From: Gemmatimonadales bacterium
GTDB taxonomy: Bacteria > Gemmatimonadota > Gemmatimonadetes > Gemmatimonadales > GWC2-71-9
Assembly: GCA_041615815.1 (NCBI GenBank)
Contig: JBFJCP010000035.1
Location: 1-38,413 of the forward strand
Direction of reading: 5' to 3'
Length of the DNA: 38,413 nucleotides
The position numbers and the translations under genes are program-made. The notes beneath the pieces were generated by a model, which was not told where the DNA came from, made no database searches, and saw only the letters and a list, made by a program, of their open reading frames with translations. Each line of letters begins with the position of its first letter. The first letter of the stretch is position 1. Shown piece by piece: positions 4,124 to 38,227 of the stretch.

Positions 4124-4251
4124 AGGCAGAATCTGCGATCTGAGCTTTTTGTCCATAGGTTCGTCATGCACACGAGTCCACCCTCATCCATATGCGAGAA
4201 CCGAATGCGGGGCGAGGTCGTCAAGGCGTTGTACCCGTTGAGGACCACGGA

Positions 4252-6495
4252 ATGACACACAACCTGTCGGCCTCGGACCGCGAGCAGCTCTCCGGTCTTC
4301 CTCTATTCGCCGACCTACCACCGGAGGCTCTGACACGGATGCTCAACGCGGCCGCAGCGAGACGCTGGGCCGCGACCGCGCCGGTGATTCGTGAAGGCGA
4401 GGAGAGCCACGAGCTCTTCGTGGTCCTCGACGGATCGGTGCAGGTCACCGTGCGCACCGACGATCGTGACCTGGTGCTCGCCAAGCTCGGTCCCGGCGAT
4501 GTCTTTGGGGAAGAGGGCCTCCTCTCGGGAACGGTGCGCGCGGCCACGGTCACGGCGCTCACCGAGTTGCGATGCGCGGTGCTGCCGCGTCGTGCCCTGG
4601 ATTCGGTGCTGGAAGACGCAACCGCAATGCGAACCGGACTCGAGGAACTCTCGGTCCGCAGGCTGCACGACCGCTTGGTCCGCTCTGTGACTGCTCTTCA
4701 AGGCCTCGAGCGGGATGGCCTCCACAGTGGGGACGTCCGCCGCGTGTCATTTTCGCCCGGCGCCGTGATCCTCAGGCAAGGCGAGGCCTCGGATGCCGTT
4801 TACTTCATCCTCGACGGCATTGTGATCGCCCTGCGCGACGGACGCGACCAGCCAGTCGTGATGACCCGCGTCGGCTCCGGACAATGCGTCGGCGAAGTCG
4901 GAGTCCTCAAGCGCGCCGCACGCTCCGCGTCGGTCGTTGCGGAGACGCAGGTCGTGACGCTCCGAGTGGATGCGGATCGATTCCGCGCTTGGGTCGCAAG
5001 CAATCCTCGGCTCGCGGACTACCTGGGGACGCTCGAGCGGATCTACCCGCTGGCCGACGGCCGGCTCCTCTCCGTCTATCGCAGCCAGCACATGGGGCGC
5101 GAGGCCGTGACGACCCTCGCCGGCGATCCAGCTTCCGATTGCATCATGTCGACGAAGGTGATTGGCGAAGACATCGTCCTCCTCGCGAGAGGCGCGGCGA
5201 GCGCCGGGGTGGACCGCGAAGTCGTGCGTTACGAGCGCCCTGGGGACGGACGAGAACGCGAGTTGGTGCTCGAGTGCCTCGAGAGAGGATCGAGGGGTGA
5301 GGTCCTCAGCGCTCGGATCGACGGCGTGCAGGTACGAGGGACTGATCTCGACGTACCCCTGCTCTACCACGCGCTCAGAAACCGGCAGGTGATACACCAG
5401 AGAGAAATCAAGCGCTTTCGCCGAGCGGGATTCCTCGGAGGGCAAACGCCGGCCGCTCACAAGCATAGGATCTGCGGCTGCTTGGGCATCGGCGGGCGGG
5501 AGCTGCTGGCTGCGAGCGCCCAGCACGGCGGTGACTTGAACACGATCAGCGCAATGCTGGGGATCGGAACCGTCTGCGGTGCCTGTCTTCCGCGAGCCGC
5601 GGAAGCGATCCATTGCCCGACGCCACTCACCGCCTCATTTCCCGCACTCCCGACGATACAGCGTCGAGGCAAATCGAAGTTGATCGTGCGTCGGCCGCGC
5701 ATCGAATATGACATGAGCGCTTTGCAGCAGCTTTCGGCCGAGCCGCAGATTCATGCGCTGGCGGTTGCGTCACTGTTTGCCACCATTGGCGAGCGGTTCA
5801 TGGTGCAGCGGGTTGGCGCCGCTCTGCCCGCACTTGCAGATCCGGCGCTCACGGCGGACGTCGAAGTCTTTCTCGAGCAGGAGAGCCAACACATTGCCGC
5901 CCACGAGCCGTTCAACCGTCTGCTCCTGGACCGCATCTATCGCGACAATCGTGCCCTGCATCGGTGCGCGCATGGAATGGTTGGGGGTGTCGAGCGGGTC
6001 TCCACAAGAACGGGCCTCGCGGTGTCCGCCTTCTTTGAGCACATCGCTGATTGCACATTCGCGGCATTCCTGGAGGATTACTACGGGCGCAACCGGCGCT
6101 TCAGCTCCGATCCTGGCGTGCACGACCTGATAGACCGTTCCGGCGTTGGCTCGCTCTTCCTCTGGCATGCCGGCGAAGAGATGTCGCACCGTCACGTCGC
6201 ATTCGATGTGATGCGGGCATACGGCGCCGGCTGGTTCACCCGCGTGGCCGCCGTGGGGTTGCTCGGGATGCAGGCCGCACTTTTGTTCCTCCCGGCGTCT
6301 GCCGCGCTCTACATGAGCACCCGCCGGCAGAAGCGTGCTCGCGCATCCCGCCGGCTCAATGTCACCGTGCGCATAGCGTTGTCCTCGTTCGTCCGCGGAA
6401 TGCGCTTCCTTTTACCGGGCTTCCATCCGCGGAAAGAGCGCTACCCATTCTTGGCCGAGCTCGAGCAGGATCTGGCGCGCTTCCCCGAAGCGTAA
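4252..6495 (+). CDS. Fusion protein: two cyclic-nucleotide-binding domains + NirB-like C-terminal segment + BFD-like [2Fe-2S] domain + PF10118-type ferritin-like (predicted metal-dependent hydrolase) domain
   Basis: FGEEGLL...RAATV and VGEVGVL...RSASV (cNMP cassettes); ICGCLG...GTVCGACLP (BFD); GERF, QESQH...H, FEH, WHAGEEMSHRHVAFDV, PGFHP (PF10118-like). Start placed at ATG 4252 after GAGGA. Confidence 0.8.
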   Translation: MTHNLSASDREQLSGLPLFADLPPEALTRMLNAAAARRWAATAPVIREGEESHELFVVLDGSVQVTVRTDDRDLVLAKLGPGDVFGEEGLLSGTVRAATVTALTELRCAVLPRRALDSVLEDATAMRTGLEELSVRRLHDRLVRSVTALQGLERDGLHSGDVRRVSFSPGAVILRQGEASDAVYFILDGIVIALRDGRDQPVVMTRVGSGQCVGEVGVLKRAARSASVVAETQVVTLRVDADRFRAWVASNPRLADYLGTLERIYPLADGRLLSVYRSQHMGREAVTTLAGDPASDCIMSTKVIGEDIVLLARGAASAGVDREVVRYERPGDGRERELVLECLERGSRGEVLSARIDGVQVRGTDLDVPLLYHALRNRQVIHQREIKRFRRAGFLGGQTPAAHKHRICGCLGIGGRELLAASAQHGGDLNTISAMLGIGTVCGACLPRAAEAIHCPTPLTASFPALPTIQRRGKSKLIVRRPRIEYDMSALQQLSAEPQIHALAVASLFATIGERFMVQRVGAALPALADPALTADVEVFLEQESQHIAAHEPFNRLLLDRIYRDNRALHRCAHGMVGGVERVSTRTGLAVSAFFEHIADCTFAAFLEDYYGRNRRFSSDPGVHDLIDRSGVGSLFLWHAGEEMSHRHVAFDVMRAYGAGWFTRVAAVGLLGMQAALLFLPASAALYMSTRRQKRARASRRLNVTVRIALSSFVRGMRFLLPGFHPRKERYPFLAELEQDLARFPEA

Positions 6496-6594
6496 TGCGT
6501 TGCGATGGTACCCGCGCCCGGCTGGCGGGATCGGCATATCACCGTCAGCGCCGCTTTCCTTGCCAGACCCCGTTACCCCGGCGATGTTCTCTCC

Positions 6595-7767
6595 ATGCGT
6601 GTCGCCGTTCACGCCGTTTCCATCGCTTCCATCATCGTCCCGGGCATCCTTTGCGCTCAGGAATCGGCCCGCAGCCCGACCGCGGTGTTGGCTGTCGCGT
6701 CGTGGAGCGGGACGTTTTCCGCCACGTTCGCCGACACGACGACGTCGGACGGAGAGGTTCGCGTGCAATTCCGATCCGTCCAAGGGACGGTCCGCTTCAG
6801 TAAGCCACGACGTCGAGGAACAACAGCCGCGAGCTGGAGCGGTACGGGAGCGGGCGACTGGCGCGTCGACGATCGCATCACCACGCCCGTGCCCCGCGGA
6901 TCCGAGGTCACGCAGACGATGTCGGGGCAGGGCACGGCGCCGCTGGACGAGCGACGCACCTCGTTGCGAGTCGATACGGGTCGTCACACGTACGATCTGA
7001 CGCTCGCCCTCGAGCCATTCCAGGTGGATCTCGTCACCGAGGGCGGGACGCTGGACGAGCCGATGCGCACGCGCACGCGGCCGCCGCGGGGTGGTGGCCT
7101 CGCTGGCTCGGTCCGGGGCGCCGTGCTGCCTGCCACAGGACTGCTGCTCGAAGGGAATCAGACGCTGCAAGACGGGACCGTGCTGCGTTGGAGTTTCGCT
7201 CCTGCGGGAGGCGTCCAGACGGCCGAACATGCAGAACCGCCGCCGGCACCGGCGAAACAGCAAGAGGTGGATGGTCCACCGCCCGCGCCCCCCGCGGCTC
7301 CCGCTGAGTCGACCCTTCCGCAACTATCCATGAACCGACCAGGTCGCGGTGAGTCCGGCACGTCGTGGTTCGAGGATCGATGGGAGCGGTCGTACACCGT
7401 TGCCGTGGTCGAGGTGATCCCACCGGAACGCGAGAAAGACTTCAAAGGCCTCGATCACACGCTCGTGATCAAGGTCATGGGTGACGACGGCGGTTGGATC
7501 ACGATCGCGGAAGCGCCCGTGAAGCCCGGCCCCGTCTCGGGGATGGACGGGTGGCAGAAGGATCATCCGGTGCAGCTCAATCCCGATTACTTCGTGATCC
7601 GGTTGGTGAAATCGTTGACCGAGCCCATGGCCGCCCGCGGGATTCGCTTCGAGTTGCAGGGTGCCCGGGTGTTGGGTGGGGGGTGGACGTTCTGGGTCCG
7701 ATCGGCACCACAGCCGGACATGATCGGCGAAACCCGCTATGAGTGGAAGTACACACATGCTTGGTGA
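6595..7767 (+). CDS. Exported hypothetical protein: beta-rich module A + Pro-rich linker + possible discoidin/CBM-like C-terminal domain
   Basis: Signal-like MRVAVHAVSIASIIVPGILCA-QE from ATG 6595; PPPAPPAAPAE linker; SWFEDRWERSYTV...EPMAARGIRFEL resembles an F5/8C jelly-roll. The start could be 6505. Confidence 0.65.
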   Translation: MRVAVHAVSIASIIVPGILCAQESARSPTAVLAVASWSGTFSATFADTTTSDGEVRVQFRSVQGTVRFSKPRRRGTTAASWSGTGAGDWRVDDRITTPVPRGSEVTQTMSGQGTAPLDERRTSLRVDTGRHTYDLTLALEPFQVDLVTEGGTLDEPMRTRTRPPRGGGLAGSVRGAVLPATGLLLEGNQTLQDGTVLRWSFAPAGGVQTAEHAEPPPAPAKQQEVDGPPPAPPAAPAESTLPQLSMNRPGRGESGTSWFEDRWERSYTVAVVEVIPPEREKDFKGLDHTLVIKVMGDDGGWITIAEAPVKPGPVSGMDGWQKDHPVQLNPDYFVIRLVKSLTEPMAARGIRFELQGARVLGGGWTFWVRSAPQPDMIGETRYEWKYTHAW

Positions 7768-9277
7768 CGCTCGCCGAGCCACACGTTCTCCGCTGCGGCA
7801 CGGCGCAGCGTTGGCTTTGGCGTTGACCCTGTCGATCGCTGCGACGGCGATCGCCCAGGAGAACACGCCCAACATCGAAGGTTCTGGGACCTACCTGCCC
7901 GGCGACTACACGTTCTATTGCGCTACGTACCGGGATCCGCCTGACGCGCCGATGCTGGGTGTCGGAAGAGCCCCCAACGAGGGCGAGCGCGGCCGCCTCG
8001 TCAACGTCACGGTTGGTATCGAACGGTTGGAAGGAGAACGGGCCCGCCGCGTCGTAACCGTCCGCGACCTCGAAAACGAGGTGTGCCGTGCGAATCTGGT
8101 CGAGCCCGGCATTTACGAGGTCAGCAGCGAAACGAACATCAGCTCGTGGATCTGGGTGAAGAACCCCGACGCCAGTTCCGTGAACGTCACGCGAGTCGTT
8201 CGCCAACCACTCCCGCTCAAGTTCTTTCGCAGCGTCTACCGCATCCAGATCGGCGACGCGGAGATCGCGCCCCCACCCGAGCCTGACTGCGCCAATCCAT
8301 CACTCGAGATCGAGCACCCCAGGCCCGACACCCTCGTGGCGTTCGATCGCGGCGCGCCGGGCCGTCTCGAGATTCAGTTGGAGGCGATCGTGTTGCCCGA
8401 CGATTGTCCGGCAGAAGTCCAGTGGCAAGCAGACGACATCCGCGGATCCACCAAGACGTTTCTGTCGGCTGACGGGACCCAGTCGAACCAGGGGCAAACG
8501 CTGACGCTCGTGTACGAAGGCTTGCCGGAGCGTACCGACGCGTTTGGGCCCAAGACCATCACGGCCACCGTGGGAGGGGTCTCGAAACAGGTGGCGGTGC
8601 AAGTGTTTTTCGATCCGGATGCGACAAACCATGCCGGAGAGGGCCACAACCAGACGCCCAACTGGTTCCACTATTGGCTGCAGACCTCCGCAGGGCAGGA
8701 CAGGACGCTGAGCGAGGTCAAATACGACGACCCGTGCCAAAGAGAAGATGGTGTCAGCCACTTCGATGGGATGCAGAACCCCAACGCCATGGATGTCATC
8801 TTCGTTTGTGACGACGCGCGTATCCACCAGCAATTCGAGATTACGGGTCAGCGAACCTGGGGAATCGATACATACGCCGTGGTCATCATTCACGAGTGGA
8901 CGCACAAGCGTAATTTCGACGAGTGGTGGAGAGAGCTGATCACGGAGATGGCTCGCGACCCGGAGATCTGGAAAGACGGCAAATGGGATGTGGACCGATT
9001 CTTGGCGGCGACGGTCGGTTCCGTGGATTCGGATCAGGACGCCATCCCGAATCACTTCGAGCCGGGCATTCCCGCGAGCCGCGGTGGCCCTCTGGACTCG
9101 ACGAAGATCGATACGTACGGGTACGACACGACCGACGACGAGTACCTGGCCTTCAAGGCCCAAGAAGCTTGGCCTATCGGTTTTGCGGACGACGAAGACT
9201 GGTCGAGGTGCGGGAAGCAGTGGAGACAGAAGTATCCGAATGATTGCCCGGAGATCCCACCACCCAAGAAGAACTGA
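7757..9277 (+). CDS. Exported HEXXH zinc-metallopeptidase-like protein (module Y + module B)
   Basis: Signal peptide ending AIA-QE; HEWTH at 8891-8905; DSDQDAIP Ca-binding-like motif. Start overlaps the end of the upstream gene. Confidence 0.75.
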   Translation: MLGDARRATRSPLRHGAALALALTLSIAATAIAQENTPNIEGSGTYLPGDYTFYCATYRDPPDAPMLGVGRAPNEGERGRLVNVTVGIERLEGERARRVVTVRDLENEVCRANLVEPGIYEVSSETNISSWIWVKNPDASSVNVTRVVRQPLPLKFFRSVYRIQIGDAEIAPPPEPDCANPSLEIEHPRPDTLVAFDRGAPGRLEIQLEAIVLPDDCPAEVQWQADDIRGSTKTFLSADGTQSNQGQTLTLVYEGLPERTDAFGPKTITATVGGVSKQVAVQVFFDPDATNHAGEGHNQTPNWFHYWLQTSAGQDRTLSEVKYDDPCQREDGVSHFDGMQNPNAMDVIFVCDDARIHQQFEITGQRTWGIDTYAVVIIHEWTHKRNFDEWWRELITEMARDPEIWKDGKWDVDRFLAATVGSVDSDQDAIPNHFEPGIPASRGGPLDSTKIDTYGYDTTDDEYLAFKAQEAWPIGFADDEDWSRCGKQWRQKYPNDCPEIPPPKKN

Positions 9278-11624: not shown

Positions 11625-13715
11625 CTAACGAGAGGGCGCCAGCGAAATGCCCGAGGTGCGCTGCTCGAGCATACGCTCCACGATCGTGACGATCTCGGCC
11701 ACTGCCGTCTGGGGCCGCTTGCCGGCGCGATGGATGCCACACACGGCCGTCGTGCACGAGTGATCCAGATTGGGGCTCCAGCGCCGCGCACCGTCCCGGT
11801 CCTTGCCGTAGGTGAGGTAGGCGGAGAGGGTATCGAGACCCGTCCCCGGGCGCTCGCCGATGAGGTGCACGATGGCGTCCGCGTCGACGAGTCCGCCCAC
11901 ATGGTAACCGGCGCGAACCCGTCCGTTCTCGATGACGACGTCCACCCCACCGACCGCAACACCTCGCACTGCGAGCGCCTGCCGCAGTGGTGGTAGTACG
12001 TGGCGCAGGTTCTCGTTCAATGCGTTGGCGTTGAGGCCATCCGACAACACCAGCTGCAGTGCCGGGCGTCGATCGGGGTACAGCGCGCGGAGGGCAGGCT
12101 GGTCGTCACCTCGTATTCGTTCGCCGGTGGAGGGGTGGTTGAGGTAGTCGTCCCGGTTCGTGGACTCGGTACGGACGCTCGCGAATCGGGGCGAGGTGGT
12201 CTCCAGCACCGCGGGCTCGACGCGCGCATACAGCGAGCGCCGCGCGTGCCGGTAGATGGCGTCCAGCCGCCGCCCTACGTCGGGTGGTGCCGAGTGGCCC
12301 GGCCCGTGGCCTCGACCGAGATCCCAGCCGCGATCGGCCAGTTCGTGAAGCTCTCGTTGCGCTTCCGATGCGAGCTCGGCGGCGGTCCGGCGATCGCCGC
12401 CCGCACGGTAGTATGCCGCGTAGAGCGATGCAACGTCCTCGGTGCGCGCGGAGTCTTCACCAACGCCGAGCCCGCGGAGCCGATCAGCCATCGGCGTCGC
12501 GATCCGCCGACCGGTGGCATGCCTGAGACGCGGATGTTGACGAAACGAGGTCGTGAGATACCCCAGCATGGGGTCGGCGTTGCCGGCCACGGCCATGAGG
12601 TACGCCGGTGCCGCCCGCGTTACGATCTCATCGGTGAGCGCTTCGAGGGTCGCCGGGTCGATTCCCATGTGGAAGGTGGCGCACACATCGAGGCCCATCG
12701 TGAGTCCGTGGAGCTTGGCCATCACGGCGTCTTCGAGGCAAGCGCGGAGTAGCTGCGCGGGACTTCTGAACACTTCGGGGCCGATGAAGCCCGCCACGTC
12801 GTTCACGATGGTCCAGGTGCCGGTGGTGTGCTGCATGGCGCGAGCGAGTCCGTACGTGCGTGCCTCGAGTGTAAGCATGTCCACGCCCATCGCGACGCCG
12901 TTGGTCACCTCGGAGCCCTGTCCGGTTTCGAAGTAGAGACCGCTGAATCCGTTGGCCAAGTCGAGCACGCCGTCGGCGTCGAGGCCGACCATGCTGCGAA
13001 GCGCGCGCGACGTGCCCGCCAGGCTCTGGAATCCGACGTCGATCCGCGTGTGTGCTCGCGCCGCGGTCTGCTTGACGATGTCGGACAGGACACAGAACCG
13101 CGTGGGCAGCTCGAGGCGGGTGACGATGCGCTCGAGCAGCTGCTCCAGCTGAATAATGGTCTCGACGTCGTTGGTGGCAGGGTTGATGCCCACGATGACG
13201 TCGCCGCAGCCGTAAGCGAGTCCCTCGAGCACAGAGAGGAGGATCTCCGTCTCCTCGTCGCCGGGGCTGTTGGGCTGGATCCGGGAGCCAAAATGCCCGG
13301 GCGCGCCGATCCGGTCTCCCGAGCCGGGCAGGGGATTGAACAGCTTCCCGGCCAGGGTCGAGAGGTCATCGTTTGTCATGGTCTTCGCCAGCGCCGCGAT
13401 CGCCTCGCTCGGGAGACCTGCGGCGTATCGGCTGGCCCAGTCGGCGCCGTGGGGGCCGAGCAGGATTTGCTTCACCTCCCCGATCGTGCGGTGCCGGACG
13501 TCGGCACGTTGGTCGTTGTCCGTGGCGCGCGCCAGCAGCTCGCTCACCCCGTCGTCGACGAACCGGGCGGGATCGAATTCGGCAATCGGCGTGCCCAGAA
13601 GCGCCCGTCGGGCTTCTTCGCGTGCGTGGGCGTCGTTCGTTCCGCCCACGAGACGGTCGCCCTCCTTGAACTCGCTGGCGAGCGTCATCGTGTGCTGCAG
13701 AGCGTCGGGAGGCAT
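11625..13715 (-). CDS. eutB: Ethanolamine ammonia-lyase, fused large (EutB) and small (EutC) subunits
   Basis: EutB motifs SRIQPNSP, GDVIVGINPA, YFETGQGSE, VAGFIGPE, ACLED, DPMLGY; EutC motifs RDDYLNHPSTG, SDGLNA, GRVRAG, LIGERPG, all in one 696-aa ORF. Confidence 0.9.
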   Translation of the reverse strand: MPPDALQHTMTLASEFKEGDRLVGGTNDAHAREEARRALLGTPIAEFDPARFVDDGVSELLARATDNDQRADVRHRTIGEVKQILLGPHGADWASRYAAGLPSEAIAALAKTMTNDDLSTLAGKLFNPLPGSGDRIGAPGHFGSRIQPNSPGDEETEILLSVLEGLAYGCGDVIVGINPATNDVETIIQLEQLLERIVTRLELPTRFCVLSDIVKQTAARAHTRIDVGFQSLAGTSRALRSMVGLDADGVLDLANGFSGLYFETGQGSEVTNGVAMGVDMLTLEARTYGLARAMQHTTGTWTIVNDVAGFIGPEVFRSPAQLLRACLEDAVMAKLHGLTMGLDVCATFHMGIDPATLEALTDEIVTRAAPAYLMAVAGNADPMLGYLTTSFRQHPRLRHATGRRIATPMADRLRGLGVGEDSARTEDVASLYAAYYRAGGDRRTAAELASEAQRELHELADRGWDLGRGHGPGHSAPPDVGRRLDAIYRHARRSLYARVEPAVLETTSPRFASVRTESTNRDDYLNHPSTGERIRGDDQPALRALYPDRRPALQLVLSDGLNANALNENLRHVLPPLRQALAVRGVAVGGVDVVIENGRVRAGYHVGGLVDADAIVHLIGERPGTGLDTLSAYLTYGKDRDGARRWSPNLDHSCTTAVCGIHRAGKRPQTAVAEIVTIVERMLEQRTSGISLAPSR

Positions 13716-16946: not shown

Positions 16947-17082
16947 CAGCTGTTACCGTCCATTGCCCAACCTCACGCGAACGCGGATGGTGATAACAGT
17001 CTGCCCCGCGATGCCGTCGCGCAAGTCAGCGAAAAGCCGTAGAATGGTTCGTGAAAACCACTGTCATGCGGAGGGACGAGTT

Positions 17083-17739
17083 ATGAAGCGCGCGAGTGCC
17101 ATGACGAGGTATGGACGGTCTCTCATGGCCATTGGCTGCTTTGTCTTCCTGGCCACTGTAAACACGCAAGAATGGACGCCACTCTTCAATGGGGGCGACC
17201 TCGAAGGCTGGAGTCATGTGGGAGACGGAGGTTTTACGATCGAAGATGGTCTCCTCAAGACGCATGGTGGAATGGGTCTCCTCTGGTATACCCCTCGCAA
17301 ATTCCACGACGTAACGTTGCGAGTCGTTTATAAAGGCGCCTCGCAAAACAATGCCGGCGTCTTCATTCGAATCCCGGAGGCCCCAACCGAACCATGGATG
17401 CCCGTACACACGGGATTCGAGGTTCAGATCGATGACAGAGAGGGTGAGTTTCACAGGACCGGTGTGCTCTACTCCCTGACGAAGGCTAAAGCGTCACCAG
17501 GGAAAGCTGGCGAGTGGAACGTCATGGAGATTACGTTGGACGGAAACAGGACGATCGTTGAAGTCAACGGCGTCCTGGTCACGGATTTCACGGAAGGTGA
17601 TGAGGTACCGCCAAAAGTGCACGACTATGAGCCGGACAGAGGTCCGAGGCCGGTGTCGGGCTATATCGGCCTACAAAACCATGGGGAAGGGGACGTCATT
17701 TATTTCAAAGAATTGAGCTATAAGCCGTTGCGCCAATGA
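17083..17739 (+). CDS. DUF1080 (3-keto-disaccharide hydrolase-like) exported protein
   Basis: WTPLFNGGDLEGW, NAGVFIR, FEVQIDD, GEWNVMEI, GYIGLQNHG. Start uncertain (17083/17101/17125). Confidence 0.88.
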   Translation: MKRASAMTRYGRSLMAIGCFVFLATVNTQEWTPLFNGGDLEGWSHVGDGGFTIEDGLLKTHGGMGLLWYTPRKFHDVTLRVVYKGASQNNAGVFIRIPEAPTEPWMPVHTGFEVQIDDREGEFHRTGVLYSLTKAKASPGKAGEWNVMEITLDGNRTIVEVNGVLVTDFTEGDEVPPKVHDYEPDRGPRPVSGYIGLQNHGEGDVIYFKELSYKPLRQ

Positions 17740-17814
17740 CACGAATGCACCGGCACCGACAATCGATTCGGTGCGGAGCACGTCACGAAATGCCGTACGC
17801 ACTATGGAACCGAT

Positions 17815-18894
17815 ATGAATGACAAAGTCGGCGTAGGTCTCATCGGGTCGCAGTTCATTTCGACCATTCATGCGGAGGCCCTGCAATCGATTTCGAAGGC
17901 TGAGGTTTTGGCCGTCATGTCGCCAACCGCCGGCCATGCTCGCGAGCTTGCGCGAAAATACGACATCCCCAATCACTTTAGATCTCTCGATGAGATGTTG
18001 GCGATGGACGACATCAAGATGGTTGTTGTCGGTGCGCCGAATTTCGTTCACTGCGATATCACATTGAAAGCCGCCGCCGCCGGCAAACATGTAGTGGTCG
18101 AAAAACCTCTATGCGTGAATCTGGCGGAGGCGGAGCGGATGATCGACGCCTGCAAACGGGCGAAGGTCAAACTGATGTATGCGGAGGAACTGTGCTTTAC
18201 CCCGAAGTACGTACGACTGAAGGGACTCCTGGATGAGGGCGCTCTGGGGAAGCCTGTCCTCCTGAAGCAATCTGAGAAGCATGATGGACCCCATGCGGAT
18301 CATTTTTGGGATGTCGAGCGCTCCGGGGGCGGGGTAACGATGGACATGGGGTGCCATGCCATCCAGTTCTTTCGTTGGTTGAATGGCAGAAATCCCATCA
18401 AATCCGTATACGCGCAGATGACCACGAGCGTTCATACGACAAAGACGAAGGGTGACGACAATGCGATCATTGTGCTCGAGTTCGAGAATGGGGTCATTGC
18501 GCTCGCAGAGGAGAGCTGGACAAAGCTAGGAGGCATGGACGACCGAGCAGAGATCCATGGTTCGGAGGGAGTTGCCTATGCCGACGTCCTGCAAGGGAAT
18601 TCTATCCAGACGTACAGCGCGAAAGGGGTCGGCTACGCGGTCGAAAAGGCCGGGATGACCACCGGGTGGAGCTTCACGATGTACGAGGAAGTGTGGAATT
18701 ACGGCTTCCCGCAGGAGCTCGAGCATTTCGTGCATTGCGTGAAGCATGACGAACAGCCACTCGTGACAGGTGAAGATGGAAAAGCGGTACTCGAGGTGAT
18801 ATTCGCGGCATATGAATCAGCGGGAACCGGAAAGAAGGTCATGTTGCCGTTTCACTCCGATGTGGACAAGCCGTACAAGCTTTGGAAGAAGTAA
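17815..18894 (+). CDS. Gfo/Idh/MocA family oxidoreductase
   Basis: GLIGSQFI, GKHVVVEKPL, SGGGVTMDMGCH, PLVTGEDG. Confidence 0.92.
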   Translation: MNDKVGVGLIGSQFISTIHAEALQSISKAEVLAVMSPTAGHARELARKYDIPNHFRSLDEMLAMDDIKMVVVGAPNFVHCDITLKAAAAGKHVVVEKPLCVNLAEAERMIDACKRAKVKLMYAEELCFTPKYVRLKGLLDEGALGKPVLLKQSEKHDGPHADHFWDVERSGGGVTMDMGCHAIQFFRWLNGRNPIKSVYAQMTTSVHTTKTKGDDNAIIVLEFENGVIALAEESWTKLGGMDDRAEIHGSEGVAYADVLQGNSIQTYSAKGVGYAVEKAGMTTGWSFTMYEEVWNYGFPQELEHFVHCVKHDEQPLVTGEDGKAVLEVIFAAYESAGTGKKVMLPFHSDVDKPYKLWKK

Positions 18895-18976
18895 TCGAGC
18901 CGAGTGTTACCCGTTTCGCTCCAACAACGTCGCCCGACCCCGAGAATGAACATCGACCAAGGTGGAGGTTGTCACC

Positions 18977-20326
18977 ATGAAACGCCAGCTTTCCCGCCGC
19001 GATTTTCTGGAAACGAGTGTGGCGGCTGCGGGAGGAGTCTTTGCGGCCGAGTCAGTACGCCTCGGTCCGCGCTCGGTCGAGGCGGCAACGGTCCGGATGC
19101 AGGCGAGTGACCGCGTCCGATTCGGAATCATCGGGGTCGGCATGCAGGGTTCCGGTCTGCTGGCCACCGCGCTGGAAGTCGGACACCAGTGTGTCGCAGC
19201 AGCGGATCTGTATGACGGTAGACACAGGCTTGCCGAGGAGATAACCGGCGATGCAAGCTTGCCAACGACGCGCCGCTATCAGGACCTACTCGATCGGCAG
19301 GACATCGACTGCGTGATCGTTGCGGTGCCCGATCACCACCACCGTCGGGTCGTCGTGGACGCGCTCAGTGCGGGCAAGGACGTGTACTGTGAAAAGCCGA
19401 TGTCGCACACCGTCGCCGACGGCACGGCGATAGTCGCGGCGGCACAAAGGCATGGTCGGATCGTGCAGGTAGGGTCCCAGCGCGTCAGCTCCGCGCTATG
19501 TGCCAAGGCCAACGAGGTGTATCTGGAGGGGGGCATCGGCGACGTCTCGATGGTCGAGCTGTCGCTCGGTCGCAATACGCCCACGGGGGCGTGGCAGTAT
19601 CCGCCGCCGTTCGACCTCTCGCCGCGAACACTGGATTGGGATGCATGGCTGGGTTCGGCTCCCAGGATTCCCTTCAATCCGCTACACTTTGCGCGCTGGC
19701 GATGCTGGAAGGAATACGGGACGGGCGTGGCGGGTGACCTGATGGTGCATTTGATCTCCGGGATGCTGTACACGCTCGGATGGAACGAGCCACCGAGGTC
19801 GGCACAGTCGCTTGGCGGGATCGTTCGATGGAAGGACGGCCGTAACATGCCCGACCTGCACGCGGTACTGTTCGACTATCACGGCGTGCCCGTGTTCGTT
19901 CGCCTTGGTCTCGGCACGGAAACGCGAGAGGTCACCCGCTTCATGGGACCGAAAGGAGTTCTGGAAGCCACCAGCCAGACGCTCGCGCACACACCGCAGG
20001 TGGGAGAAGACCAATCCCCGAGCTACTACGCATACGGATTCCCGAGAGAGATGCGCGAAGAGTACTTCGAGCAGTGGCATGCCGAGCACGATCCTCAACC
20101 CGGCAGTGAGCCCGTGGATGCCGCCATCACCTATCACGGACCGCACTGGGACGACACCACGCCGCATGTATGGGGCTTCTTTGAGGCCGTGAGGACGCGC
20201 GAGCCGGTCGTGCAGGACGCCATCTTTGGCAACCATACGGCGATCGCCTGTCATATGGCCAATGAGTCATTTTTCCGCCAGGCCCCTGTTCGCTGGGACG
20301 AGGCTTCGGGGACAGTGAAGAGCTAG
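18977..20326 (+). CDS. Tat-exported Gfo/Idh/MocA family oxidoreductase
   Basis: GGAGG RBS; SRRDFL Tat motif; GIIGVGMQG, AVPDHHH, KDVYCEKP, QVGSQR, GDLMVH. Confidence 0.92.
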   Translation: MKRQLSRRDFLETSVAAAGGVFAAESVRLGPRSVEAATVRMQASDRVRFGIIGVGMQGSGLLATALEVGHQCVAAADLYDGRHRLAEEITGDASLPTTRRYQDLLDRQDIDCVIVAVPDHHHRRVVVDALSAGKDVYCEKPMSHTVADGTAIVAAAQRHGRIVQVGSQRVSSALCAKANEVYLEGGIGDVSMVELSLGRNTPTGAWQYPPPFDLSPRTLDWDAWLGSAPRIPFNPLHFARWRCWKEYGTGVAGDLMVHLISGMLYTLGWNEPPRSAQSLGGIVRWKDGRNMPDLHAVLFDYHGVPVFVRLGLGTETREVTRFMGPKGVLEATSQTLAHTPQVGEDQSPSYYAYGFPREMREEYFEQWHAEHDPQPGSEPVDAAITYHGPHWDDTTPHVWGFFEAVRTREPVVQDAIFGNHTAIACHMANESFFRQAPVRWDEASGTVKS

Positions 20327-31860: not shown

Positions 31861-32607
31861 GTGAGCATCTCGCCTCCCGTGACACCCCCCGCCTTCGCAC
31901 TGCACGGTGTCCGTCTGGAGAGGGCCGGCGTCCGCGTCCTCGACGACGTGAGTCTCGACATCCCGGACGGACAGGTCACCGCGCTCATCGGTCCGTCCGG
32001 TGCAGGGAAGAGCTCGCTGCTTCGGCTCCTCAATCGGCTGGACGATCCCGATGCTGGAGAGATTCGCTGTCGCGGTCGTCCCGTCGTCGACATGCCGGTA
32101 CGCCAACTCAGGCGCCAGGCGGGTTTCGTGTTTCAGACACCGGTCATGTTTCCCGGGACGGTGCGGGAAAACCTCGAGGTCGCCGCGAACATCGGGGATC
32201 TTCCGGCGGCGGAGGTGTCCAACCGCGTGGTCGAGAGCATGGGTCTCGCCGAGCTCGACACGGCCCTCGCTGATCGCGCTGCGGACCGGCTGTCCGTGGG
32301 TGAGAAGCAGCGCGCCAACATCGCCCGTGCGCTCATGACCGGTCCGGAAATCCTCTTGATGGACGAGCCCACCGCGTCGCTGGACCCGGAGACCGCCGAG
32401 CGATTGGGACGGACCATCAGGCATCTCAGTACCGCGTGCGGCGTCACGATCGTGCTGGCCACGCATCGGCTGAAGGAAGCCAAAGCCGTCTGTACGTTCG
32501 TGGTGATGCTCGATGGCGGGCATGTGGTGGAGGCGGGCCCCGCGTCTGCGCTCTTCGAGGAGTCGGCACACCCGCGTCTGCGGGCATTCCTCGAGCGGGT
32601 GGGCTGA
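31861..32607 (+). CDS. ABC transporter ATP-binding protein (FetA/YbbL-like)
   Basis: GPSGAGKS, LSVGEKQR, LLMDEPTASLD, H-loop LATH; adjacent to a UPF0014 permease. Confidence 0.9.
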   Translation: MSISPPVTPPAFALHGVRLERAGVRVLDDVSLDIPDGQVTALIGPSGAGKSSLLRLLNRLDDPDAGEIRCRGRPVVDMPVRQLRRQAGFVFQTPVMFPGTVRENLEVAANIGDLPAAEVSNRVVESMGLAELDTALADRAADRLSVGEKQRANIARALMTGPEILLMDEPTASLDPETAERLGRTIRHLSTACGVTIVLATHRLKEAKAVCTFVVMLDGGHVVEAGPASALFEESAHPRLRAFLERVG

Positions 32608-32609
32608 CC

Positions 32610-33428
32610 GTGTCCGCGCTCCTCCAGGCCGGCCAGGTGGACGCCCGTCCCATCATCGAGCTGTCGTGGCTCGATCTCACGCTCGCCGCGGGGCTGATCC
32701 TGATCGCGTTCGGGCTTTCCCGCTGGCGCGGCGTCGGACTGGGCCGCGACGTCGTCGTTGGGGCCATTCGCAGCGTGGTCCAGCTCGTGCTCGTCGGCTA
32801 CGTCCTCGTCTACATCTTCGCCATCGACCGGTGGTACCTCGTGGTGGCCGCATTGCTGCTCATGCTCGTCGTGGCAACCAAGACGGCGGTGGATCGACAG
32901 GACAAACCAAACCGCGAACTGCTCGGGATCGTCGGGGTCGCGATGCTCATCGGGTCCGGCCTGACCCTGATCTACGTGGGCGCCGCCGTGGTCCGCACGG
33001 ATCCCTGGTACGACCCGCGCTATCTGATCCCACTGTTCGGCATGATCGTGGGGAACGCGATGAACGCGGCCGCGCTCGCCGCCGAGCGCCTCGCCGGTGA
33101 GGTCGCCGCCCGCCGCGCCGAGATCGAGGCGTATCTCGCCCTCGGGGCCAGTCCCGTCCGGGCGGCGCAGGACGCCGTGCGCAAGGCCATCCGCGCCTCC
33201 ATGATCCCCATGGTGAACAGTCTGATGGTCGTTGGGATCGTGGCCCTGCCGGGGATGATGACCGGGCAGATCATCGCCGGGGCCTCGCCCCTGACGGCCG
33301 TACGCTACCAGATCGTGGTCATGTTCATGCTCATGGCGGCGGTGGCCGTGACGGGAACGCTGGTCGCCCTCTGGTATCGCAAGACCTTCTTCACACCGGC
33401 GGAACAGTTACGATACGAGGCCGGCTGA
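32610..33428 (+). CDS. fetB: UPF0014 ABC permease (FetB/YbbM)
   Basis: RSVVQLVLVGYVL, PRYLIPLFGMIVGNAMN, GIVALPGMMTGQII, AVRYQI; GTG start at 32610. Confidence 0.9.
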   Translation: MSALLQAGQVDARPIIELSWLDLTLAAGLILIAFGLSRWRGVGLGRDVVVGAIRSVVQLVLVGYVLVYIFAIDRWYLVVAALLLMLVVATKTAVDRQDKPNRELLGIVGVAMLIGSGLTLIYVGAAVVRTDPWYDPRYLIPLFGMIVGNAMNAAALAAERLAGEVAARRAEIEAYLALGASPVRAAQDAVRKAIRASMIPMVNSLMVVGIVALPGMMTGQIIAGASPLTAVRYQIVVMFMLMAAVAVTGTLVALWYRKTFFTPAEQLRYEAG

Positions 33429-33681: not shown

Positions 33682-34440
33682 TCACGGGTCGAGGACGCGG
33701 TACTCACCTTCCTCGGTCAACTCTACCGTGAGTCCGAGTTCTTCGAGGGCTTTCATTGCGGAGACGCGGACCGGGTAGAGCTCGGTGGCACCACCATCTA
33801 GGTTGTCCACGTCGACCAGGTACGTGTCGCGGGCAGCCTGCCGCAGGTCGGGAATGGCCTCGTGCGCCTCCAGCTCGCCGAGCAAGTAGGCAGCGTCAGA
33901 CCGCACGTCTCCAACGGTGGATGTGCGCAGTAACGCTTGCAGCTCCGGTATCGCATCCCGCTGCCCGGCGTAACCGAGGGCAAGGACGGCCCGGGCCCGA
34001 ACCTCGCCGGTCTGTTGGTTTACCGCCTGGCGAAGGGTCTCCAGCGCTTGCGGCGCGAGCTTACCCAATGCGCGGGTGTAGACGTAGCGCAACCACTCGG
34101 TGGTGGAGAGATAGGTCCCGCGCGGGGCGGGACCGAGGGTGGGCTGGTTGATCTCACGCTCGAGGGCATCGAGGAGCAGCGTGACCCGAGCGGGTGCCGG
34201 GATGTCCTGACGGTCACCGAGCTGCCACGCCGCGTCGAGACGCCGATTCCAATCTTGGTGTGCCAGAGACTGCTGGATTTGGACGGCGGGATCTTGACTG
34301 GTCTCCTCGGACGTCGTGCCCGGAACATCCTCCGATGTATCGCTGCCGCACCCCGCGGCGAAAACGAGACCGAAGAGCAACGCACCCAGATTGGCACTTG
34401 GAGCCCAGACGGTTCGGGATGACCTGTTCACAGAGATCAT
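33682..34440 (-). CDS. HEAT-repeat lipoprotein
   Basis: ATG 34440 overlaps the upstream TGA (ATGA); FAAG-C lipobox; repeats RRLDAAWQLG, VRARAVLALG, VRSDAAYLLGEL, VRVSAMKALEEL. Confidence 0.82.
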   Translation of the reverse strand: MISVNRSSRTVWAPSANLGALLFGLVFAAGCGSDTSEDVPGTTSEETSQDPAVQIQQSLAHQDWNRRLDAAWQLGDRQDIPAPARVTLLLDALEREINQPTLGPAPRGTYLSTTEWLRYVYTRALGKLAPQALETLRQAVNQQTGEVRARAVLALGYAGQRDAIPELQALLRTSTVGDVRSDAAYLLGELEAHEAIPDLRQAARDTYLVDVDNLDGGATELYPVRVSAMKALEELGLTVELTEEGEYRVLDP

Positions 34441-36074
34441 CTCGATGGGCGTCCGGTTGCTGCGATGCCGCACAGCGGCTCCTGGTTCTCGTTGCGCTGC
34501 ACGGGTTCCGTTCCGAACCGCTTTCCTGGCGCCGCCCAATCCTCCTCGTCGGCTGTGCCGCTTTGCCACAGGCCTTCGGCCAACCACGCGAGGTAGTGCT
34601 CGTCGGTCATTTTGCAGCGGTGGGTGTCCTGCCACTTCGGGTTCATCCCTAGAGACCGCTCGAGGCGATCGGGGATCTTGTCTCGGTCGCGGTCCACCGT
34701 TCTGCGGTCCCTCCGGTATTCGGGCGTCCAGCATGTCTTGTGAACACACGGATCTTCGTACTTCGGCCCGCCCGTGCGCGTGGTCCATTCCTGGTCGAAG
34801 TTTCGCCACCACTGCTCGTAGTGTTTTTTGTGTTCCCACTCGTGCAAAACCGTCGTGGCATAGGTATCGATACCATCTGTGAACTCTCCCGTCACCGAAT
34901 TCCATCCGGAGCCCGTGACGGGATCACAGACGTTGATATGGGAGTCGCCGGGAACGTAGAAGCCGAATGTCTTCTTCGTCGGATCGTCGTCTTGGCACTC
35001 CTGCGGTGGGGAGTAATGGACCTGGCTGCGGGACAGCCCCCGTCCAGCAGCCGTCTGCCGCCAGTAGTAGAACCAGTTGGGAACGTCCTCGTCGTCCGGA
35101 TTGAAGGTCCCTTTCAGCGCGAAGAAGAATCGCACCGGCATTTCAGCCGTGACCTCCTCACTGCACATGCTGAGGCTCGCGGTCACGGGTTCCTCTACCG
35201 CAAACGCGCCGTTGTCTTCTGGCAGATTCGTATACGTTACCTTCACATACTGGCCCCGCCCGCTCTCCGGGTCCGTCGTCAGCCACACCCCGGGAATCTC
35301 GGGGAACGTCCAGACGACCCTCGCGGAATCTTGCTTGGAGACGTTGTTGGCGATGGCGAGCTCTTCGGCCCGTCCTTCTGAGCCGTCTTCGTCGAAGACC
35401 ATCGCGTCCCACCCGGTGGGATCGATTGCCAACGCCGGTGCGTCTCCGCCGGTGCAGGGGGACAGACTCCAGCTGATCGAGCCGCTTCGTGCGGCAGCCA
35501 TCGGGCTATAGCTCCGCTCGAGGTTCTGCGAGCCGGTCAGGGCACCCACGGAGGGCGGAAGCGGGATGTCTTCAGCCCGTACCTGTACCTCCTCGAGCAA
35601 CAGCTCCGCGCTCCCCGATTGGGAGAAGCCCCCTGCGGTGAACGTGGCGGTCCCGGTGATACCCTCCCCGGCGTCGAGCAGGGAAACCCGATAGGTCTCC
35701 TCATCCAAGTTCATGAACAGCTCCACCGATCCGCCGGGCGATCGGCCGGATCCGCTCGAGGTCGTGCCTCCACCCTCCATCGTGGCCTCGCTCTCGAACG
35801 TTGCTGAAAAGGTCACGTTCTCTCCGATCCAGATCACCCGCCGCGGACGGTCCCGCACTTCGGCTAATTGCAGGGTCACCGATCCGTTCGCCGACGCTGT
35901 CAGGCGGGCTTTCATGGCCGATACGTTTCCGCCTTCAGTGACTTCCACCCGGATGGTCCCCGACCACTCGGTGATCCCCGTCCAATCGTCTGCATCCCGA
36001 TCCTGCTTCGGCCACCATGAGGCCCCGGCGGTCAGCACCGCGGCAGCGACGACGGCAAAGAATGGCGCTCTCAT
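34437..36074 (-). CDS. Exported HEXXH zinc-metallopeptidase-like protein (module A + module B)
   Basis: Signal-like MRAPFFAVVAAAVLTAGAS from ATG 36074; HEWEH at 34830-34844; PNWFYYWRQT; DRDRDKIPD. Confidence 0.78.
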   Translation of the reverse strand: MRAPFFAVVAAAVLTAGASWWPKQDRDADDWTGITEWSGTIRVEVTEGGNVSAMKARLTASANGSVTLQLAEVRDRPRRVIWIGENVTFSATFESEATMEGGGTTSSGSGRSPGGSVELFMNLDEETYRVSLLDAGEGITGTATFTAGGFSQSGSAELLLEEVQVRAEDIPLPPSVGALTGSQNLERSYSPMAAARSGSISWSLSPCTGGDAPALAIDPTGWDAMVFDEDGSEGRAEELAIANNVSKQDSARVVWTFPEIPGVWLTTDPESGRGQYVKVTYTNLPEDNGAFAVEEPVTASLSMCSEEVTAEMPVRFFFALKGTFNPDDEDVPNWFYYWRQTAAGRGLSRSQVHYSPPQECQDDDPTKKTFGFYVPGDSHINVCDPVTGSGWNSVTGEFTDGIDTYATTVLHEWEHKKHYEQWWRNFDQEWTTRTGGPKYEDPCVHKTCWTPEYRRDRRTVDRDRDKIPDRLERSLGMNPKWQDTHRCKMTDEHYLAWLAEGLWQSGTADEEDWAAPGKRFGTEPVQRNENQEPLCGIAATGRPSR

Positions 36075-36151
36075 GCTGCTGGTCCCCAGTTCAGGTTGCT
36101 TCATTGAATATCGATGGTGATGAGCGTCTTGTACGCGTGTTCTTCCAGCCT

Positions 36152-36349
36152 CTAAGCAATCCACCCACTCGTCCCAGTGAGACTCCCGGGGTCGTCGTAG
36201 GAGAGGGCGACGGAGCCTGGGTACACCTCAGCGACCCGCCGATCCTGATCGCTAGTTTCAGAACCACCGAGCTCCGCCGCCTCCCCACCTGCACCTGCCA
36301 TCACCAACGTGAGGGTGGCGAGAGTAGTCATCGTGGCAGGCACCTTCAA
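36152..36349 (-). CDS. Small exported peptide or truncated gene (65 aa)
   Basis: AAGGAG RBS before a TTG start; hydrophobic N-terminus MKVPATMTTLATLTLVMAGAGGEA; fills the gap within a co-directional cluster. Confidence 0.5.
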   Translation of the reverse strand: MKVPATMTTLATLTLVMAGAGGEAAELGGSETSDQDRRVAEVYPGSVALSYDDPGSLTGTSGWIA

Positions 36350-36380
36350 AGTGCGGTCTCCTTACGCCATTGGATCTGGA

Positions 36381-36893
36381 TTACCCCCGTTCCAGCCGCC
36401 GGCGGAGGCTGAGCGGCCGCATGTCCGTCCAGACCTCCTCGATATACTCGGACGCTTCCCCGAACGTCCCGACCTTTCCCGTGGGTGTCAGTTCTTCGGG
36501 GAACGTCTCCTCCGCGGGCCAGAGCATGTATCCATAGTATCCGGACGGGATGCCGTCGTTCTCCCGGTCGTCTCCCGTCCTCTCTTTCCGCACCAGCACC
36601 TGGTATTTGATCGCATCGCGTTCGATGCCTCGTTGCGCCATTCGCGTGCGGAGGCTGCGGGGACGCATGTCGGTCCAGACCTCTTCGATGTAGTCCATCG
36701 CTTGTCCCAGCCCGCCGGTCCTGCCGGTGGCCTTCCATCCCGTCGGCACTTGCTCGTCGGCCACCCAGACGGCGTACTGCTCCTCCGGGTTGACGATGAC
36801 CTGGTAGCGGATCCGCTCTTGGGCTTGCGTGGTGCCGCTGAGGGCGATGGACGAGAGCAGGACCGCTGCGGTGCGAAGCGTGGGGAAAGACAT
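36381..36893 (-). CDS. Signal-peptide-bearing protein with two tandem MbtH-like domains
   Basis: GAGGAG RBS; signal ending TQA-QE; YQVIVNPEEQYAVW...PTGW...YIEEVWTDMRPRSL, then YQVLV...LWP...YIEEVWTDMRPLSL. Confidence 0.88.
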   Translation of the reverse strand: MSFPTLRTAAVLLSSIALSGTTQAQERIRYQVIVNPEEQYAVWVADEQVPTGWKATGRTGGLGQAMDYIEEVWTDMRPRSLRTRMAQRGIERDAIKYQVLVRKERTGDDRENDGIPSGYYGYMLWPAEETFPEELTPTGKVGTFGEASEYIEEVWTDMRPLSLRRRLERG

Positions 36894-36925
36894 GAAAGCT
36901 CCTCATCAAACCGTTGGTGTAGCGA

Positions 36926-38227
36926 TTAGCGCCCCGCGCAGACCAACTCGTCGGATCGTCCGTTGTTGTCCTCGCGGGCTTCTGTCACGACGCCGTTGGG
37001 ATCGATGGTAACCTGGACGGCCGTGGTGTCGGAGACGGTGATCGCCTCGAACGTGTGGGCCCGCTGCCCCCCCGCTGGCCCGAGCGCTTTTTCGGGGTCG
37101 AGGGACTCGAGAGTCACGGAGTGCGCGGGCTCTTCGTCGCGCGAGACGCTCAGGATCGCGGCCTCCCACGCCTCCGCGGGGAGCGTCGCGGGCCCACGGT
37201 TCACGACTTCCGCCGTCACCCGGCACTCTGCGTCGAGCCCCAATCGGGATACGGTCAAGTCGGGCAGCCGGTTGTACGCCACTTCCTGGAGGATTCTTCT
37301 CGTCAGATTCTCCTTCACGCTCCACGTCAGGCCGCCGTCAGTGGACCGCGCGACGGTCCCCCGCCAGCCGACGACGACCAGCACACCGTCTCTGCCCTCG
37401 GTCGCTCCGGTCAAACGCTGTGTGGTGCCGGACTCGACGGCCGTCCAGGTCTCGCCGCCGTCCTCGGAGCGTGCAATCGTGCCATCCCAGCCCGCCGCGA
37501 CGATCGTTCCCGATGCGCTGGTGGTCACACCCTCGAAGGTGTTGCGGATTCCGGTGCGCACCACCGTCCAGGTCGCCCCGCCATCGGACGAATACGCGGC
37601 TCCCCCCAACACGCCTACCGCCACCCACCGGTCGTCACCGAGGGCCGTCACGGCGTTCACGTGGGCGCCCATTCGCGTCGTCGTGGCAGTCCACGTCTCG
37701 CCGTTGTCACTGGAGTGAATGATCAAGCCTTGGGCACCACCCCCCACCCAGGTTCCCTCCCGGTCGGTTGCCACGGAATAGAGGGCGTCCGTGGTTCCCG
37801 AAACGCGGGCCTCCCAGCTGGTGCCACCATCGGTGGACAGGAGCACGCTCCCCTGACCACCCACCACGACGAAGCGTCCGTCGTCATGCCATGCGATGCT
37901 TTGCAGGTTGTCCTCGCTGCCCGACGCCATGGTCTCCCAGCTGGCTCCCCCGTCGGTCGAGCGGAGGATCACCCCCCCTGATCCCACTGCCACGAAGCGA
38001 CCCCGGTTGTCGGACACCACGCCGTTGATATAGGAGCTGATTGGCGTGACTGCTGTCCAGGATTCTCCGTCATCCGTACTGTAGAGTACGATGCCGCTTC
38101 TGCCGACGGCGACATAGTCCGTCCCTCCAGCGGATTCCGCCTGCTGCGCCTCCGAGGAGCCCGTTGGAACGAGCAGTACGACTCCCAGACCGAAAAGCCT
38201 CGCGGCCCACCGCAATAGCTGCTGCAT
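36926..38227 (-). CDS. Exported BNR/Asp-box (Ycf48-like) 7-repeat beta-propeller + CARDB domain
   Basis: Signal ending SEA-QQ; seven S(T/S/E)DxGxxW repeats; LPDLTV...VVNRG...IDPNGVVTEAREDNN. Confidence 0.9.
   Translation of the reverse strand: MQQLLRWAARLFGLGVVLLVPTGSSEAQQAESAGGTDYVAVGRSGIVLYSTDDGESWTAVTPISSYINGVVSDNRGRFVAVGSGGVILRSTDGGASWETMASGSEDNLQSIAWHDDGRFVVVGGQGSVLLSTDGGTSWEARVSGTTDALYSVATDREGTWVGGGAQGLIIHSSDNGETWTATTTRMGAHVNAVTALGDDRWVAVGVLGGAAYSSDGGATWTVVRTGIRNTFEGVTTSASGTIVAAGWDGTIARSEDGGETWTAVESGTTQRLTGATEGRDGVLVVVGWRGTVARSTDGGLTWSVKENLTRRILQEVAYNRLPDLTVSRLGLDAECRVTAEVVNRGPATLPAEAWEAAILSVSRDEEPAHSVTLESLDPEKALGPAGGQRAHTFEAITVSDTTAVQVTIDPNGVVTEAREDNNGRSDELVCAGR

Follow-up and report, generated by a model that had tools for sequence, protein, structure and literature searches.

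A predicted secreted zincin with a HEAT-repeat lipoprotein partner and a predicted exported double-MbtH protein in a probable gene mosaic of a Gemmatimonadales bacterium

Five adjacent genes (g1–g5) on a 38,413-nucleotide (nt) contig of a Gemmatimonadales bacterium can be compared with several described bacterial systems. MbtH-like proteins (PF03621; e.g., PA2412, PDB 2GPF/2PST) are small, single-domain proteins without an export signal. They are treated as markers or helpers of nonribosomal peptide synthetases (NRPSs), being known partners of cytoplasmic peptide-building enzymes, and their function is still debated. In zincin metallopeptidases, the third zinc ligand is Glu in gluzincins and Asp in aspzincins. 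Among peptidases with dedicated partners, the secreted KLIKK peptidases of Tannerella forsythia are described as linked to potempins, membrane-anchored lipoproteins that act as cognate inhibitors and protect the envelope; potempins are 98–132-residue beta-barrels encoded upstream of the peptidase (PMC9890683). The C-terminal processing protease CtpA of Pseudomonas aeruginosa is reported to be inactive without LbcA (PMC8764530). Polymorphic toxins, as outlined in PMC3482391, combine a conserved delivery N-terminus with a variable C-terminal toxin and a downstream immunity gene.

The window analysed here is that entire contig (C35), part of a 4.19-Mb, 96% complete genome (G000). All five genes lie on the minus strand, with gaps of 32, 31, 77 and −4 nt in order from g1 to g5. 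The initial annotation had read them as one candidate extracytoplasmic system for protein processing or antagonism; we consider it probable that the stretch is instead a mosaic. Its conserved core is g4–g5, a predicted zinc peptidase and its HEAT-repeat partner, with g1 as a loose accessory. Because g2 does not co-occur with the peptidase in other loci or carrier genomes, it is an independent insertion or passenger. The main features are as follows (aa, amino acids; Ig, immunoglobulin).

36926..38227, minus strand: g1, 433 aa; signal-like leader, seven Asp-box (BNR) repeats, C-terminal CARDB Ig-like domain
36381..36893, minus strand: g2, 170 aa; two MbtH repeats, of which the second is degenerate, behind a predicted type I signal peptide
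36822..36893, minus strand: predicted signal peptide of g2, residues 1–24; basic start, hydrophobic core (2.46), T-Q-A followed by Q (+1)
36152..36349 (TTG start at 36349), minus strand: g3, 65 aa; ribosome-binding site (RBS) and hydrophobic N-terminus; doubtful gene or remnant
34437..36074, minus strand: g4, 545 aa; leader, subfamily-specific N-terminal region, Ig/PKD-like domain (about 208–323), zincin-like domain
34830..34844, minus strand: HExxH motif of g4 (HEWEH, 411–415; H411, E412, H415), invariant in 63/63 aligned homologues
34659..34694, minus strand: DxDxDxxPDxxE loop of g4 (461–472), a predicted calcium site; strict motif in 50/63, relaxed motif in 59/63
33682..34440, minus strand: g5, 252 aa; lipoprotein (lipobox AAG-C31), linker, family-specific HEAT/PBS-type domain; 4-nt overlap with g4

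The g4–g5 pair and the g4 peptidase family

Relatives of g4 are encoded by 238 metagenome stretches, and 79 of these loci were analysed. A full-length g5-type domain lies directly downstream of the peptidase, or is fused to it, in 16 of the 79. Clustering at 90% gave 60 peptidase clusters; after 11 with <900 nt downstream were dropped, a g5-type partner was found in 16 of the 49 testable clusters (15 distinct loci). Every full-length g5-type match adjoins a peptidase (16/16 in these loci and 2/2 among 401 genomes of the phylum). In the 14 loci where the two genes are split, the g5-type start lies at −4 nt relative to the peptidase stop in 12, at −1 in one and at +3 in one. The partner is membrane-anchored in 13 of the 14: judged by eye, eight carry a lipobox and five an uncleaved transmembrane (TM) helix, the last having a cleavable leader. 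Four of the top 150 peptidase representatives are fusions with a g5-type domain, joined by a low-complexity linker, which retain the HEAT domain and drop the anchor; fusions also occur in metagenome loci L032 and L083, the latter in the same protein cluster as P0200. g5 itself matches Pfam HEAT_2 (E 8.9e-20), with HEAT repeats also called by Atlas. Ahead of their third helix, g5-type partners have in common a Pro-rich loop that ends in an aromatic-Leu motif. Because g4- and g5-type genes co-occur, overlap and fuse, and g1 adjoins g4-type genes, we regard the module of a peptidase with a membrane-anchored partner as real. This part of the initial proposal, a metallopeptidase with a membrane-anchored HEAT protein, thus holds across distant lineages, and that g4 and g5 form a physical pair is likely from this gene arrangement.

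Several observations limit this reading. Pairwise identities among peptidases (30–69%) and among HEAT proteins (21–64%) correlate (rho 0.74, 16 pairs, 0/2000 permutations), which shows long joint inheritance, as shared descent gives, not contact. On a quick tree, the HEAT-linked peptidases also group together (6 changes, compared with 15.2 when shuffled); the loci are therefore not independent, leaving room for a single origin of the linked peptidases. Moreover, two thirds of the peptidases have no HEAT partner (33 of 49 clusters, with HExxH retained), including an intact paralogue in this window, so self-protection is either not generally needed or supplied in trans. No common downstream gene was seen in the non-HEAT peptidase loci.

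The g4 family is large. A word search with g4 gave seven other matches, and a profile search 1277 clusters at 50% identity. Members share a region of about 300 aa; across 63 aligned members, HExxH, PNWxxYW, ID, D465, E472, D491, DW and G517 are invariant, and HExxH is present in 148 of 150 representatives. A hydrophobic leader precedes 91 of 102 long members. The AlphaFold model (predicted local distance difference test, pLDDT, 92.9) resolves into an Ig/PKD-like domain (best Z 7.3) and, after it, a helical domain. With the catalytic domain modelled alone (pLDDT 94.1), the top fold matches are nearly all zincins, the best being lugdulysin, M30 (7BB8; Z 5.2, root-mean-square deviation 3.9, 108 aligned). 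As in zincins, the HExxH sits on a long helix (88–121 of the model). The family departs from known zincins in its own PNWFYYW, GIDxF, calcium-loop and DWxxPGK motifs and in the obligatory Ig-like domain in front, and g4 fits no Pfam, NCBIfam or PDB sequence family. No Pfam family reached its cut-off in 63 domains (Aspzincin_M35 matched weakly in 6/63, best E 0.0034), the peptidase profile had no PDB sequence match, and g4 had no Atlas match. Two results weigh against the fold assignment: the zincin Z-scores lie within the range that the tool calls common, and Foldseek returned no match at E ≤ 0.001 (best E 0.32). Overall, the motifs and model suggest that g4 is a secreted zinc peptidase of an uncatalogued family, its activity and Sec export being predictions.

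The DxDxDxxPDxxE loop resembles EF-hand-like loops, and we presume that it binds calcium. Since E472 is position 12 and closes this predicted loop, the third zinc ligand is more likely D491 (63/63) or residue 493 (Glu in 53, His in 10), judging from conservation. The N-terminal regions vary widely, with 21 clusters among 109 sequences. In 43 members scanned, we found ankyrin repeats in four, HEAT repeats in two, a weak phosphatase match in one, and no domain in the others.

Two more peptidase copies occur in this genome. The intact one lies in the window:

7739..9277, plus strand: second g4-type peptidase, 512 aa, 32% identity with g4 over 326 aa; no HEAT neighbour

It is preceded by a gene (6505–7767, plus strand) for a 420-aa exported protein of no family, which is weakly like some peptidase N-termini (BLAST E 0.056; best phmmer E 1.3e-4 among 109 sequences). 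The third copy (contig C18, 91173–91889; L025 7177–7890) is broken into three frames, its N-terminal part is gone, and a long ankyrin-repeat gene is nearby on the opposite strand. A search of 120 relatives of G132 (another genome with g1, g4 and g5 homologues) and of 330 family genomes gave no further peptidase carrier. Elsewhere, locus L042 has two tandem peptidases, and fusion loci L032 (1214–1732, 4706–5266) and L083 (406–1460) both carry a DUF3617 gene and a gene for a 187-aa exported protein with a YPGS motif.

How g5 may act on g4

The mechanism that we favour is restraint. g4 would be exported and would cleave proteins picked by its family's variable N-terminal domains, ankyrin repeats in some members. 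g5, made in step with g4, would bind it one-to-one at the cell envelope and hold it inactive; in the fusions, which keep the HEAT domain and lose the anchor, latency would be imposed in cis. This arrangement recalls the KLIKK peptidases and potempins, where the genes for a secreted peptidase and for its membrane-anchored lipoprotein partner are likewise closely linked. It differs in that g5 is a 250-residue HEAT protein encoded downstream, its relatives are also found TM-anchored or fused, and inhibition by g5 is a proposal. By this comparison g5 may work like a potempin; being a HEAT protein and not a beta-barrel, it is not one. Two observations make restraint preferable to activation: in two thirds of the family the catalytic motif is kept although no partner is present, and the fusions keep the HEAT domain but not the anchor. 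Given a physical pair, we consider inhibition by g5 slightly the better bet. For the explanation as a whole (a mosaic in which g4 is restrained by g5, g1 is an accessory and g2 is independent) we see about an even chance. A point against restraint is that no feature found separates inhibition from substrate recruitment.

Close behind is the reading that g5 is an adaptor or activator, tethering the peptidase to the membrane and presenting substrates, as LbcA does for CtpA (PMC8764530). Both systems join an alpha-solenoid lipoprotein to a soluble extracytoplasmic protease, and in the g4 family the anchor is maintained by two different means and fusion to the peptidase is typical of substrate-binding domains. 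Moreover, 9 of the 15 linked loci encode a third protein, single-TM and of no family, behind the HEAT gene (at −4 to +4 nt in 7/9), and this protein might be a substrate or further subunit:

Third gene directly after the HEAT gene: L031, L035, L042, L044, L045, L050, L055, L058 and L060

Proteins of this third family are about 190 aa long, with a GCxxGC motif before one TM helix, and L050 has two copies of the gene. Against an adaptor role, 33 of 49 peptidase clusters keep an intact catalytic motif with no partner, the fusions have lost the anchor, and neither this genome nor the G132 locus yielded a copy of the third gene. The likeness to LbcA–CtpA is also partial, since g4 is zincin-like, most of its family is partnerless, and g5 has HEAT repeats where LbcA has TPR repeats. 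We hold the adaptor role possible and somewhat doubtful.

It is unlikely that g4–g5 is an interbacterial toxin–immunity pair, in which the peptidase would attack competitors and g5 protect kin. The order of toxin then partner with an overlap, the patchy distribution (3/401 genomes) and the broken peptidase copy on C18 fit such a pair, and metallopeptidase toxins and HEAT immunity proteins do exist in the material covered from PMC3482391; there, however, HEAT immunity goes with Tox-REase-7 and Ntox34. The family has a constant C-terminal domain behind a variable N-terminus, the reverse of polymorphic toxins, and no RHS or other delivery domain was found in the 43 members scanned. Essentially every polymorphic toxin gene has an immunity gene, whereas a downstream HEAT gene is present in 16/49 clusters and most members have no immunity-like neighbour; g4–g5 fusions also exist. 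Two defining features of polymorphic toxins are thus absent here.

The double-MbtH protein g2

g2 is a PF03621 member (E 8.5e-17; 60.8 bits against a cut-off of 27) with two WTDMRP repeats, the first of which matches PA2412 (E 1e-17). Relative to the MbtH signature VxxNxExQxSLWP-x5-PxGW-x12-L-x6-WTDxRPxSL (as given in PMC7593251), repeat 1 keeps the N, E, Q and W, PxGW, both motif tryptophans and the WTDxRPxSL tail, with A-V-W-V in place of S-L-W-P. Repeat 2 is missing NxExQ and PxGW and keeps the WTDxRPxSL end. Both repeats thus end as MbtH-like proteins do; unlike those proteins, g2 has two repeats per chain and a predicted signal peptide, and its family lacks nearby NRPS genes, some carriers having no detected NRPS. 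The family is widespread: a homologue search gave 1033 matches (93–298 aa), of which the best 120 each contain two WTDxRP repeats. Among these 120, WTDxRPxS is kept in 115 for each repeat, PxxW in 91 and 89, and the strict full signature in three.

A hydrophobic leader is present in 108 of the best 120 homologues. The leader sequences are unrelated and retain signal-peptide anatomy and a Gln at +1: among the 108, a basic residue precedes the leader in 94, no Met lies between leader and core in 93 (nor in g2 itself), and the leader ends in small-x-small-Gln in 90 (20.6 expected when the tails are shuffled). For Bacteroidetes substrates of signal peptidase I, a Gln following the cleavage site is described as the rule (PMC5837995), and several named double-MbtH carriers are Bacteroidota. 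We think it highly probable that g2 is truly exported. Its conserved tryptophan surfaces would then form a two-headed protein-binding or chaperone module unrelated to NRPSs.

The genomic surroundings are consistent with this view. A DNA pattern for the repeat junction found 17 loci in GTDB, of which the 15 single-chain loci (Bacteroidota, Rhodothermales and Acidobacteriota) were used for genome tests; L020 and L022, with adjacent single MbtH genes, were left out. No NRPS motif occurs in the 17 flanks (2.5–14 kb) or on contig C35, and the 17 flanks share no specific neighbour. The double-MbtH gene is the sole MbtH gene in 13 of the 15 carrier genomes. A condensation domain is absent from seven of these genomes, and one of five carriers tested has an adenylation (A) domain above the TIGR01733 cut-off. 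G445 (4.9 Mb, with 4.5 Mb in one contig) and G448 (Aureitalea sp. L0-47), both well assembled, have neither a condensation domain nor an over-cut-off A domain. A search of 60 relatives did not turn up g2. The two excluded loci (L020 6755–7271; L022 about 530–1007) each hold an adjacent pair of single, leaderless MbtH genes, in an Acidimicrobiia genome and with flanks free of NRPS motifs; such pairs are a possible precursor state of the tandem form.

Some results count against export and independence from NRPSs. The leaders were scored by a crude rule, and 12 of the 120 matches are called without a leader, some of them having plausible native starts. The other 8 of the 15 double-MbtH genomes do encode a condensation domain, and NRPS genes lie on C1, C16, C29 and C49 of this genome, where g2 is the only MbtH gene. 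The corresponding alternative, that g2 is an ordinary cytoplasmic NRPS helper with an artefactual or unused leader, stays alive at low odds because of this last observation, and it also agrees with the leaderless homologues and with the tryptophans and WTDxRPxSL end kept in repeat 1. The shared anatomy and Gln+1 of unrelated leaders, the missing Met between leader and core, the 17/17 flanks free of NRPS motifs, and G445 and G448 all argue against it, and we regard it as improbable.

Cluster composition and significance

The co-occurrence proposed as a check in the initial annotation was borne out for g4 and g5 across distant lineages and for g1 beside g4-type genes (3/3 carriers); it failed for g2 and g3. 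g1 matches BNR, PSII_BNR and, barely above the cut-off, CARDB in Pfam, and its seven Asp-box repeats of about 41 aa each are predicted to form a seven-bladed Ycf48-like propeller. Among the phylum's 401 genomes, three (G000, G015 and G132) carry a g1 orthologue (E ≤ 1e-40); the peptidase was found in just these three, and g1 adjoins a g4-type gene in each. The G015 and G132 orthologues are 59–62% identical to g1 and divergently oriented. G132 has g1, g4 (52%) and g5 (53%) together; in G015, g1 stands beside a distant ankyrin-type peptidase without g5. Because it adjoins the peptidase in the three carriers and is missing from distant loci (no orthologue in the 79 metagenome peptidase loci), g1 is a lineage-level companion and loosely linked accessory. 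Its association is weakened by its absence from all nine HEAT-linked loci with >4 kb upstream (of 16 linked) and by resting on three genomes, perhaps sharing one transferred island; g1 possibly comes from such an island of exported genes. No further g1 orthologue was found among the 120 relatives of G132. In G132 and G015, a DUF4412 exported-protein gene also lies near the g1/g4 genes (L113 9091–11653; L026 10750–11544), followed in G132 by further exported proteins of no family.

The initial annotation had suggested g3 as the peptide substrate. g3, which matches no family, is doubtful even as a gene: of 733 stop-free windows read in a wrong frame, 12% reach its codon score, and a score this low is seen in only 14% of 426 windows from true genes. 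No g3 homologue was found in the genome, in the peptidase loci or among 470 longer candidates, leaving a two-member cluster. As a remnant of the third cassette gene (hhalign probability 0.5%) or of a YPG-motif neighbour (2%), g3 was rejected.

Other elements of the earlier description of the locus stand, namely five co-directional open reading frames (ORFs) with the gaps given above, export-type leaders on all five and the domain content (Asp-box and CARDB in g1, PF03621 in g2, HEWEH in g4, HEAT_2 in g5). An N-terminal hydrophobic stretch is present in 5/5 proteins (best 9-residue Kyte-Doolittle mean 2.19–2.93), and export is predicted from such features together with the g5 lipobox. GGAG-type RBSs precede g1, g2 and g3, that of g4 is weak, and the g5 start overlaps the g4 stop. 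The G+C content of g1–g5 (0.63–0.67) is near that of the genome (0.64). Marine metagenome contigs from two studies cover the stretch in the same order at ≥99% identity, in three pieces, with a 60-nt gap within g4 and a 30-nt overlap within g2. Promoter and terminator scans of the stretch gave nothing exceeding shuffles, and PADLOC gave weak HEAT-ARM matches only.

The proposal that g1–g5 make up a single dedicated processing system, in which g2 would be an MbtH adaptor and g3 a peptide substrate, draws on their co-direction, short gaps and leaders and on the recurrence of g1, g4 and g5 in G132, and is very improbable: no MbtH gene occurs in 80 peptidase loci (including the 79 from metagenomes) or in G015 and G132, the other genomes with g1 and g4; no g1, g4 or g5 homologue occurs in the 17 tandem-MbtH loci, and no peptidase in the 15 double-MbtH genomes (mostly incomplete metagenome-assembled genomes); g3 has no homologue; and g1 is divergent in both other genomes.

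Outside the cluster, genes for an ABC ATPase and a UPF0014 membrane protein (31861–33428, plus strand) converge on g5 and bound the cluster. Farther away, a gene at 4192–6495 (plus strand) encodes a 767-aa protein with, by eye, two cyclic-nucleotide-binding domains, a Cys-rich BFD-like segment and a metal-dependent hydrolase-like C-terminus. A 696-aa ORF at 11625–13715 (minus strand) appears by eye to fuse the large and small ethanolamine ammonia-lyase subunits. At 17000–19000, where a set of sugar oxidoreductase-like genes lies, the G+C content falls to about 0.55 as compared with 0.64.

Two families absent from family libraries and literature searches, tandem MbtH and Ig-zincin with a HEAT partner, meet in this window. 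Neither exported or tandem MbtH proteins nor the peptidase–HEAT pair was found in literature searches whose scope left out subscription journals and supplements, and neither family is described in the material covered from PMC7593251, PMC3482391, PMC12419801 and PMC7159879; the supplements of PMC3482391 could list the peptidase under another name. The predicted exported tandem MbtH family, found in bacteria without detected NRPSs, including the cultured Aureitalea sp. L0-47, offers a direct test of whether the fold serves generally as a protein-binding module. It also warns that annotating double-MbtH genes as 'NRPS accessory protein' misleads. The peptidase family is large and has a confident fold, no Pfam model and a genetically defined partner, so that a new protease class and a new type of inhibitor or adaptor can be tested from two proteins. 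Taken together, these families may comprise a widespread exported, NRPS-independent double-MbtH binding or chaperone protein and more than 1000 secreted zincins under the control of a membrane-anchored HEAT-repeat protein, the first peptidase inhibitor of that kind, a prospect that we put forward tentatively, at somewhat less than even odds.

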